Below, piece by piece: positions 35,857 through 36,881 of a stretch of 64,000 nucleotides of DNA. The position numbers and the translations under genes are program-made. How positions within the stretch are numbered: the first letter of the stretch is position 1; every line of letters starts with the position of its first letter. Source of the DNA: a virus. Taxonomy: Duplodnaviria; Heunggongvirae; Uroviricota; Caudoviricetes. The stretch is taken from the IMG/VR virus record IMGVR_UViG_2609459826_000002. The stretch is one strand, 5' to 3'. Below the pieces are notes generated by a model. It ran no database searches, was not told the DNA's origin, and saw only the letters and a list, made by a program, of their open reading frames with translations.

Positions 35857-36621
35857 ATGAAAAAACGCATCACTTTCAGCGCAAACAAAAAATCTACTAT
35901 TGATGCAATTGATGACTATAGCCGTGCAAAAGGATACTCTAGGTCAGAGGTGATATCATTTTTGTTAAACGCCACAGCCCCAGCATTGAATAAAATAACA
36001 TCGCAATATCATATAGCTCAAACTTTGGAGTCAACATTAGGCTGTATTTTTGAAGAGAAGGCCCCCTCAATCGCACGGGGTGAGCCAAAATTAACTTACG
36101 AAGAGTTTTTTTATTCCGTCTGGAACACTCACATTCGACACCGGAACGAGGTTGTCGATCAAGATTTTTATGCGCACAAAATACCTCATGATAAGATGGG
36201 TAAGAGCGAAAAAAAATTAATTCATGAAAAGCTCTCATACATTATAAAAAGTTTCAATGTGAAAAAAGCAATTTTTATTTACACAGATCGGCGCGTGAAC
36301 CGCAAACATCTCATTGCAGGAGGGTTATCTAATATCATACTGATAAAGGACACAGTCTACGATGGTTGTTTTTTTGATTTGAGCAGCATTGTGATTATGC
36401 CAATCTTTGAACTTATTACATTTGGAGTTGAGGCAGTATTGAAAAGAAATAAAACTCCCCCTAAACAATCATGCTATTGCTGGATACCAATTTATTACAC
36501 AAATGATCTAGCGGTAATGGTTCCGGTAATTGCCGAAGGCGATACACCTCAAAAGGCGATGAAAGGAGGAGATGCCATCATTATTAATCCCTTTAACGGT
36601 GAAGTAAACCATACATTCTGA
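35857..36621 (+). CDS. Hypothetical protein with N-terminal ribbon-helix-helix-like segment
   Basis: 254-aa ORF; N-terminus MKKRITFSANKKSTIDAIDDYSRAKGYSRSEVISFLL resembles RHH (CopG/ParD-like) fold motif; remainder unrecognised. Confidence 0.4.
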   Translation: MKKRITFSANKKSTIDAIDDYSRAKGYSRSEVISFLLNATAPALNKITSQYHIAQTLESTLGCIFEEKAPSIARGEPKLTYEEFFYSVWNTHIRHRNEVVDQDFYAHKIPHDKMGKSEKKLIHEKLSYIIKSFNVKKAIFIYTDRRVNRKHLIAGGLSNIILIKDTVYDGCFFDLSSIVIMPIFELITFGVEAVLKRNKTPPKQSCYCWIPIYYTNDLAVMVPVIAEGDTPQKAMKGGDAIIINPFNGEVNHTF

Positions 36622-36704
36622 TACCAATGTTAAGCATAACCACTTAGTTTACATACATCTCGACAGTATGGAGTTATTGCCTAATAGCTAGATGAGAGCA
36701 AAAG

Positions 36705-36881
36705 ATGCCTACTAACAAAACAAAACCAAAGAAAATGCAGGGAAGACCTGAAGGAAGTAAATATTCTTATCTAATTCAGAATGAGAAGGCTAAGCATTAC
36801 TCTCAATCCAAGGTGGCAAAGATCTTAGGAATAAGCATTTCCACGGTAAAAAGATACTGGGATAATGGTATCTTTGGATGA
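36705..36881 (+). CDS. Small HTH-like ORF (58 aa, not in supplied ORF track)
   Basis: Translation MPTNKTKPKKMQGRPEGSKYSYLIQNEKAKHYSQSKVAKILGISISTVKRYWDNGIFG with HTH-like SQSKVAKILGISISTVKRYW. Confidence 0.35.
   Translation: MPTNKTKPKKMQGRPEGSKYSYLIQNEKAKHYSQSKVAKILGISISTVKRYWDNGIFG

Follow-up and report, generated by a model that had tools for sequence, protein, structure and literature searches.

The segment around 36 kb of a 64,000-nt viral sequence (IMG/VR record IMGVR_UViG_2609459826_000002, Caudoviricetes; hereafter the window) is assigned by homology to a CP4-6-type island that integrates at thrW, as part of its conserved backbone. Two open reading frames (ORFs) in this segment, both starting with ATG, are considered here: 35857–36621 (+), which encodes 254 residues and has AAGGA 6 nt 5′ of its ATG, and 36705–36881 (+), which encodes 58 residues. 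An earlier note had suspected them to be toxin-antitoxin (TA) or defence genes. Its coordinates for both ORFs are exact, and the conservation of both is beyond chance, but the two genes are here re-filed as backbone genes of a kind of island that is common among enterobacteria yet unstudied. The longer gene encodes a YagM-like protein and the shorter a stand-alone helix-turn-helix (HTH) protein related to YagL, termed mini-YagL. Judging from the sequence comparisons, we regard the homology of both genes and their membership in the island as practically certain. The two genes add new members to a known, uncharacterized family, and the HTH-only YagL is a minor new variant.

The island runs in the order of a thrW-type att fragment, an intF-like, a yagN-like, an alpA-like and the yagM-like gene, mini-yagL, a yagK-like gene, and then a type I restriction-modification (R-M) cargo. 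The GC content at 35–38 kb is 0.36–0.40, versus about 0.50–0.58 across most of the window. With this composition, a YfjJ-like protein matching PF11726 (E 5e-52) and a type I R-M operon, the earlier description of an AT-rich, horizontally acquired island beside YfjJ-like and R-M genes holds.

YagM of E. coli K-12 exhibits 31% identity to the 254-residue protein over residues 2–249 (BLASTP, E 3e-43). A search of 5.8 billion proteins identified 17 homologue clusters, with complete members of about 245–268 residues. All 17 homologues, including a cluster representative with 99% identity, carry the precomputed Pfam domain PF27701 (UCP007319). The model of PF27701 is not in the Pfam copy used here, so that membership is taken from the precomputed domains of the homologues and not from a direct score of the window protein; the absence of this model is also the reason why hmmscan returned only a sub-threshold DUF6364 match. 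Only 49 clusters reached E ≤ 0.001 when 1.84 billion representatives were searched exhaustively with a profile, showing that the YagM family is small. Full-length homologues reach down to 31–36% identity, which argues that the 254-residue ORF is more than a chance reading frame. The exact sequence is already public, named "hypothetical protein" in most sources and "CopG family transcriptional regulator" in one. These alignments place the protein in the uncharacterized YagM/UCP007319 family. A well-known housekeeping function, which would have counted against the reading of the earlier note, was assigned by none of the domain searches; the family found is the uncharacterized PF27701.

The YagM-like protein is predicted to comprise a ribbon-helix-helix (RHH) segment at residues ~1–45, a long helix to ~67, and an alpha/beta C-terminal domain at ~80–254. 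When a profile of the N-terminal part was built from 24 diverse members and compared with the whole PDB sequence set, CopG of plasmid pMV158 was the top match (E 0.0042, 20.4 bits), aligned from residue 1 and in register over the N-terminal 37 residues of the family profile. The full-length family profile again placed CopG on top, at E 0.58, and neither the full protein nor its profile gave anything significant against the PDB. Searches of the protein against Pfam, NCBIfam, PHROGs and PADLOC returned only sub-threshold matches of RHH type, and the phage genome collection gave no match to it. The RHH-like N-terminus proposed in the earlier note is rated probable, although it is marginal by each single test.

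The remaining ~200 residues had been described as unrecognized. This does not stand for the protein as a whole, which belongs to PF27701/UCP007319; it does stand in that the family is of unknown function and that the C-terminal domain (~170 residues, ~80–254) has no detectable structural relative. No toxin fold was found among the structural comparisons of the protein. In the alignment of the close family, the polar motifs KKAIxIYTDR, AGGxSN and IPIYxTN are common in the C-terminal domain, and the polar residues H107, E118, K136, K137, T143, D144, R145, S158 and N159 are invariant. These motifs vanish in a broader alignment that adds a branch of 265–290 residues. The only position strictly invariant in both alignments is Ser30; D174, G190 and W209 do not vary within the close family, and in the broad alignment their counterparts appear invariant or nearly so. 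The best-conserved region across the family is the N-terminal part, which probably binds DNA, and the C-terminal part diverges. That the polar motifs are not family-wide makes a fixed active site, as in an enzyme or toxin, less likely. The C-terminal domain would fit a structural, oligomerization or ligand- or partner-binding role.

The gene at 36705–36881 encodes an HTH protein, as the earlier note had read it. Its match to HTH_7, the HTH of resolvases, scores 24.0 bits against a Pfam cutoff of 23.8, and it displays 54% identity to residues 183–232 of K-12 YagL (E 2e-14), that is, to the C-terminus of a protein of 232 residues annotated as "resolvase-like catalytic domain-containing protein". 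In the more distant loci of Pectobacterium (L003) and Providencia (L004) and in L013 and L025 (loci are cited by L numbers where they must be told apart), a protein of 190–194 residues lies between the yagM-like and yagK-like genes; its C-terminus aligns to the 58-residue ORF, and its N-terminus is a weak match to the Resolvase domain. Alignment to the resolvase of a Providencia plasmid (L022, described below) reveals that the equivalents of R8, S10, R68 and R71 are lost in the full-length island YagL proteins, and that the 58-residue protein starts exactly at the GRPxGS arm preceding the HTH. Like gamma-delta/Tn3 resolvase and Hin/Gin, mini-YagL has a GRxxGS arm and an HTH_7; unlike the serine recombinases, it lacks a catalytic domain entirely and cannot be a recombinase. 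The 58-residue protein is, on these alignments, the arm and HTH left after a serine recombinase, already inactive, lost its catalytic domain.

Mini-yagL is an intact gene kept by purifying selection and not debris. The same ATG, length and stop occur in 9 distinct loci, which include Escherichia, Kluyvera, Scandinavium, Serratia, Buttiauxella, Citrobacter, an Enterobacteriaceae metagenome-assembled genome, and a metagenome contig with a YagM of only 67% identity. The HTH hardly varies among these loci, and the ratio of nonsynonymous to synonymous substitution rates (dN/dS) of the ORF is 0.13–0.5 in most pairs. The yagM stop and the ORF are separated by 83 bp, and the in-frame reading upstream of the ATG closes after 3 codons. 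In E. coli MB52, the one RefSeq genome examined for this, PGAP left the gene unannotated; in other sources the protein is named a sigma factor, a Pin-like protein or DNA invertase, or an HTH protein. The gene shows that small backbone genes can escape annotation. A 62-residue ORF called in L012 lies in another frame and was discarded; the true HTH ORF sits in the homologous frame there. Separately, about 40 nt directly after the yagM-like stop (36622–36664) are ~81% identical even in L012, in which YagM is 67% identical. This stretch could be a promoter or operator of mini-yagL, or a relic of the 5′ region of the deleted recombinase.

The distribution of the genes was compared in 22 loci, from Escherichia, Kluyvera, Scandinavium, Serratia, Buttiauxella, Citrobacter, Pectobacterium, Providencia, Proteus, Pantoea and metagenome contigs. 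YagM, the YagL-type HTH and YagK are adjacent and co-directional in every locus that reaches far enough. The backbone int-yagN-alpA-yagM-yagL-yagK thus recurs in many genera of Enterobacterales, and at least 7 unrelated cargos accompany it. Beyond yagK, the window and E. coli MB52 carry a type I R-M system with DUF4268; other loci carry a sucrose operon, R-M genes with SMC- or OLD-type ATPases, radical-SAM/AAA/PIN genes, GmrSD, EAL together with biosynthetic genes, and, in a divergent branch, a Fic-domain protein as the first cargo gene. Since the backbone is constant while the cargo varies, both ORFs belong to the machinery of the element itself and not to its cargo.

The divergent branch encodes YagM homologues of 290 residues (P0040, P0065 and P0066) in the order int, YagM homologue on the opposite strand, alpA, yagK and Fic (L024, 4272–8449; L026, 2166–6289). 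An intergenic region of ~0.5 kb separates the starts of the YagM-like gene and alpA, and no YagL is present. The position between int and alpA, divergent from the latter, is that of the master repressor in phages and in islands of the Staphylococcus aureus pathogenicity island (SaPI) type. The YagM of this branch thus resembles SaPI Stl and the cI-type repressors in standing between int and alpA and divergent from alpA-yagK; unlike them, it has a probable RHH instead of an HTH and shows no sequence or structural similarity, so the likeness is positional only.

A YagM homologue also occurs outside islands. The circular Providencia plasmid NZ_CP114799.1 (L022, 1–4136; 4,136 bp) encodes one of 269 residues directly upstream of a 193-residue resolvase, which matches gamma-delta resolvase at E 8e-20, keeps Arg8 and Ser10, and is apparently active; the plasmid also carries a 381-residue lipoprotein-like ORF. 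Because this plasmid carries both proteins, the pairing of YagM with a resolvase suggests an older unit than the island backbone. The series from a recombinase active on the plasmid, through a catalytically dead one, to the HTH alone would be an example of stepwise decay and exaptation as a DNA-binding factor. The possibility that YagM is the Rep protein of the plasmid was rejected: region 194–704 is common to 334 small plasmids at ~93% identity and is likely a Rep-independent origin. No RNAI was detected in this origin region by Rfam. A further "plasmid", CP101363.1, is a linear chromosomal fragment and was discarded as evidence.

In K-12, a remnant of this island type survives as the intF end of CP4-6. 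There (intF-yagN-ykgV-yagM-yagL-yagK, the right end of CP4-6), the gene order and orientation are the same as in the window, and the same thrW 3′ fragment precedes the integrase. The identities are 89% for Int, 63% for YkgV, 56% for YagK, 54% for the C-terminus of YagL, 42% for YagN (partial) and 31% for full-length YagM. The window differs from CP4-6 in its highly diverged YagM (31%), in a YagL cut from 232 residues, as annotated, to the 58-residue HTH-only form, in a type I R-M cargo, in a right end broken by the insertion sequence IS1, and in the lack of an intact thrW. The K-12 orthologues of the backbone genes were reported to be transcribed (PMC5811629), and the YkgV protein was detected in K-12 (PMC6001520). 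In the literature, yagM, yagL and yagK were found only in lists and screens, and no mention of PF27701 was found.

In pMV158, the RHH repressor CopG is encoded ahead of RepB, an HUH rolling-circle initiator. The window similarly has a gene with HUH motifs downstream of the gene for a probable RHH protein, in the same orientation. CopG, however, has 45 residues and nothing more, whereas the window protein has ~200 extra residues and an HTH gene intervenes before the HUH gene. The genes of the window are moreover separated by intergenic regions and a hairpin, so that a single operon is only putative.

It is about an even chance, in our estimate, that the YagM-like protein is an RHH transcriptional regulator of the excision and replication genes of the island and that mini-YagL is an accessory DNA-binding factor. 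Both would then be sequence-specific DNA-binding proteins that serve the life cycle of the island and not defence. YagM would bind DNA through its N-terminus as an RHH dimer or tetramer and would most likely repress the alpA/yagK genes for excision and replication, or regulate its own expression, much as CopG does ahead of RepB or Stl does in the SaPIs; its C-terminal domain would serve oligomerization and possibly the sensing of an inducing signal. Mini-YagL would be an accessory or architectural DNA-binding factor at the same control or origin region, and YagK an HUH nickase that replicates or mobilizes the excised circle. A role for YagL in DNA binding instead of catalysis is proposed because R8, S10, R68 and R71 are lost in the island copies and because, in the clade of the window, the catalytic domain is deleted and the HTH is under purifying selection. 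Besides the gene-for-gene agreement with CP4-6, the regulator reading draws on the HTH_7 match, on the relation of the 58-residue protein, through the plasmid resolvase, to the DNA-binding domain of gamma-delta resolvase, on the repressor-like position of YagM in the 290-residue branch, on the lack of family-wide catalytic residues in its C-terminal domain and on the HUH and YxxK motifs of YagK.

Several observations weigh against a regulatory role. In the clade of the window, yagM lies downstream of alpA and co-directional with it, not divergent. A sequence motif shared between the regions upstream of yagM and yagK, described below, occurs only in this clade and is absent from K-12, L003, L004, L013 and L025. 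The Providencia plasmid has a YagM homologue with a resolvase but without int, alpA and yagK, and the function of YagM is therefore not strictly tied to the excision/replication module. The literature on K-12 yagM consists of genome-wide screens, with none found on the function of YagM or YagL, and the role assigned to the C-terminal domain is purely inferred.

Other functions can be envisaged for the pair. YagM and mini-YagL may be accessory proteins of an origin or relaxosome that recruit or position the HUH nickase YagK, and not mainly regulators of transcription; we give this a minor share of the probability, and it overlaps mechanistically with the regulator reading. The RHH proteins TraY, MbeC, NikA and TraM act as such accessory proteins in relaxosomes or in the initiation of rolling-circle replication. 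The strict co-linearity of YagM, YagL and YagK in the main branch and the HUH and YxxK motifs in YagK agree with it, as does a hairpin ~25–45 nt upstream of the yagK ATG, where the different sequence of L012 can also form a short stem; the hairpin is, however, statistically unremarkable (z −1.85 in the window, 0.08 in L012). In CP4-57, replication genes come next after alpA. Replication genes likewise occupy the place after alpA in the related phage-inducible chromosomal minimalist islands (PICMI) (PMC10803314). An accessory of YagK would nevertheless be hard to reconcile with the plasmid, where a YagM homologue is present without YagK and the origin region (194–704) is common to hundreds of small plasmids, or with the divergent branch, where YagM is on the strand opposite to alpA-yagK and YagL is absent. 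The pair could alternatively stem from a serine resolvase system for multimer resolution or inversion, with YagM as the partner or regulator of the resolvase and the island copy as a remnant with little current function. NZ_CP114799.1, with its YagM homologue directly upstream of a resolvase keeping R8/S10, and the adjacency of YagM and YagL in all main-branch loci would be explained in this way. Only one such plasmid was found, though, and YagM also occurs without any YagL. Furthermore, the island YagL lacks the catalytic residues or the whole catalytic domain, yet both genes are intact across many genera, which points to a present-day role apart from recombination; an origin of this kind with little remaining function is very unlikely.

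The TA or defence role suggested in the earlier note is treated as another alternative: an antitoxin-like RHH joined to a C-terminal domain with toxic or effector activity, possibly under the control of the small HTH protein, would stabilize the island or abort phage infection. The location in a defence-carrying island would suit such a module, as would the many invariant polar residues of the close family and the YagM-resolvase pair in the non-origin part of a small plasmid, where addiction and abortive infection genes are common. The polar motifs are lost in the divergent branch, however, and the yagM-like gene is backbone, constant across varying cargos. The 254-residue protein has no PADLOC match, no toxin domain by Pfam, NCBIfam or PHROGs, and no structural match to any toxin fold; the sole PADLOC match of the two ORFs is a generic HTH match of the 58-residue protein. 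Examined as a type II TA system, the locus offers a protein of 254 residues instead of a small antitoxin, and its neighbours encode a protein with an AlpA-like HTH, one with an HTH derived from a resolvase, and one resembling an HUH Rep. No toxin gene or toxin family is found in or next to the two genes, and no separate partner gene follows, as the downstream genes are the dead-resolvase HTH and the HUH Rep-like gene; the 58-residue protein, as the DNA-binding domain of a dead serine recombinase, is not an antitoxin. The assignment thus lacks support and is improbable on this evidence, though somewhat less so than the resolvase remnant.

The proposed regulation of excision and replication by YagM can be extended, though we consider the extension doubtful, about on a par with the origin-accessory role. 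YagM might be an unrecognized class of master regulator of a widespread family of small enterobacterial hitcher islands with IntF, AlpA and a YagK-type HUH protein. The CopG-like RHH would repress the genes for excision and replication, with the C-terminal domain as a sensor of a helper phage or conjugative element; upon induction, AlpA-dependent excision, YagK-driven rolling-circle replication and transfer of the defence cargo would follow, with YagL as an exapted co-regulator. The island type shuttles R-M, GmrSD, PIN/AAA and other defence cargo. If AlpA-controlled excision and HUH replication under YagM were true, they would explain how these defence islands move, and the y-ome genes yagK, yagL, yagM, yagN and ykgV would gain a role. 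The genes would matter more were YagM shown to act as sensor and repressor for a family of mobilizable defence islands.

The other genes of the backbone are as follows. The IntF-type tyrosine integrase (33543–34931, +) is P4-like, contains Arm-DNA-bind_3 and Phage_integrase domains, and is 89% identical to K-12 IntF; its true start is probably the internal Met at ~33621. The yagN-like gene (35054–35503, +) encodes 149 residues with 42% identity to YagN over the C-terminal half and is conserved in L001, L014, L016, L018 and L019. It has no family match in Pfam or PHROGs. The Ser-rich, low-complexity protein contains an acidic SDPDPE stretch, and its C-terminus is hydrophobic. The stop codon of the gene overlaps the start of the alpA-like gene (ATGA). 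The latter (35500–35721, +) encodes a YkgV/AlpA-like HTH_17 protein of the excisionase or activator type (HTH_17, E 2.4e-7; 63% identity to K-12 YkgV), with a PHROG match to excisionases/regulators.

The yagK-like gene (37084–37704, +) encodes the member of the YagK/YfjJ family ("inovirus Gp2 family") whose PF11726 match was given above, with 56% identity to YagK. In an alignment of 7 diverse members (A2), H108-x-H110, Y185-x-x-K188 and an RVDxH motif are invariant. There is a weak match to REP_ORF2-G2P (24.9 bits, cutoff 27.8) and no PDB sequence match. The motifs of YagK are consistent with an HUH nickase or rolling-circle initiator.

A stem-loop with 11-bp arms (inverted repeat I10; 35746–35769, +) lies just after the alpA-like gene. 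Its RNA folding energy is −15.2 kcal/mol (z −6.1), and the stem is kept by a compensatory change from A:T to G:C in L002/L017; in L009 it is extended, with a U.G pair and a larger loop. The loop expansion and the U.G pair in L009 favor an RNA hairpin, and a protein operator was rejected. The hairpin is probably an RNA terminator or attenuator. Thus the genes from yagM to yagK may form a separate or attenuated transcription unit.

The shared motif mentioned above is the 13-mer TTAATTAACATAA, with copies at 35771–35783 (+), 86 nt before the yagM-like ATG, and at 36988–37000 (+), 96 nt before the yagK-like ATG. Exactly 2 copies are present in the 64 kb versus 0.01 expected, and the motif is conserved in the close relatives of the window locus. 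A search for an operator shared upstream of yagM and yagK in the other lineages gave only 9–10-mers at chance level. Without a comparable motif in those lineages, the 13-mer is a lead only.

The backbone can be compared with other small islands. The hitcher islands PICMI of Vibrio carry int and alpA, and a DUF3987/DUF5906 primase is mandatory in the model (PMC10803314). In Pseudomonas islands at the transfer-messenger RNA (tmRNA) gene, which carry intY and alpA, inovirus Gp2-like and HTH proteins are among the likely core functions (10.1101/2024.08.29.610337). Like these, the present island has a tyrosine integrase, an AlpA-type gene with an overlapping or adjoining small gene, life-cycle genes and then defence cargo. 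It differs from both in its integration at thrW instead of fis or tmRNA, and YagM is described in neither paper. The overlap of the yagN-like stop with the alpA start resembles the PICMI gene iolg, which is needed for excision, but iolg overlaps int and not alpA. With int and an alpA-like gene present, no primase or packaging domain was found in 33.5–45.8 kb; the element is therefore not a satellite of the phage-inducible chromosomal island (PICI) or PICMI type, both of which are defined by int, alpA and a primase (DUF3987/DUF5906 or pri-rep), and PICI in addition by genes for packaging or capsid redirection.

The att core copy at 33393–33440 (−), directly upstream of the island integrase, is the 3′ 48 nt of a tRNA-Thr that we take to be thrW from its likeness to the E. 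coli thrW sequence. It corresponds to a partial Rfam tRNA match at 33404–33460 (−, 29.7 bits), lies between the integrase gene of the neighbouring prophage (32215–33378) and that of the island, and is unique in the window. The same fragment precedes intF both in K-12, at the right end of CP4-6, and in E. coli MB52. ARAGORN found no intact tRNA gene in the window, and no second att core copy, distal att or intact thrW was found in the 64 kb. An IS1 transposase gene (46378–46881) directly follows the R-M cargo. From the lack of a second att or intact thrW together with this IS1, the distal end of the island is lost, rearranged or outside the window. With the distal end apparently truncated or rearranged, the island may no longer be excisable.

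IntF-type islands repeatedly adjoin another element at its integrase end, either in tandem or back-to-back (L001, 9038–11949; L003, 4167–7079; window, 32215–34931). The adjoining element is a P4-like satellite in E. coli MB52 and Pectobacterium, and a prophage in the window and in E. coli ECONIH4. Such tandem arrangements are consistent with serial use of one tRNA att site.

The cargo of the window (37778–45774, −), also present in E. coli MB52, encodes a HigA-like HTH protein, HsdR, a DUF4268/PDC-S11 protein, HsdS and HsdM. The HigA-like protein (37778–38272, −; 164 residues) has an HTH of the HigA antitoxin type at residues 71–146 (TIGR02607, E 9e-12, just under the cutoff) and an N-terminal extension of ~70 residues. 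Its gene is directly upstream of hsdR, with no HigB-like partner evident, and recurs beside yfjJ-family genes in E. coli genomes. The DUF4268 protein (41438–42625, −), encoded between hsdR and hsdS, has a match at E 2.5e-174 to PDC-S11, a candidate defence family in PADLOC, and the same arrangement within the type I R-M operon is repeated in E. coli MB52. Its gene is a possible accessory or independent defence gene within the operon.

Elsewhere in the window, a second AT-rich patch at 20000–23000 (GC 0.32–0.38), within or next to the neighbouring prophage, encodes a nucleoid-associated protein of the NA37 family (20185–21351), followed by an overlapping ORF of 408 residues without a Pfam match. 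In the prophage region, upstream of the prophage integrase, the small RNA STnc100 is matched over the full Rfam model at 30370–30583 (+; E 2e-6), with 42.6 bits and thus just under the gathering score of 47.

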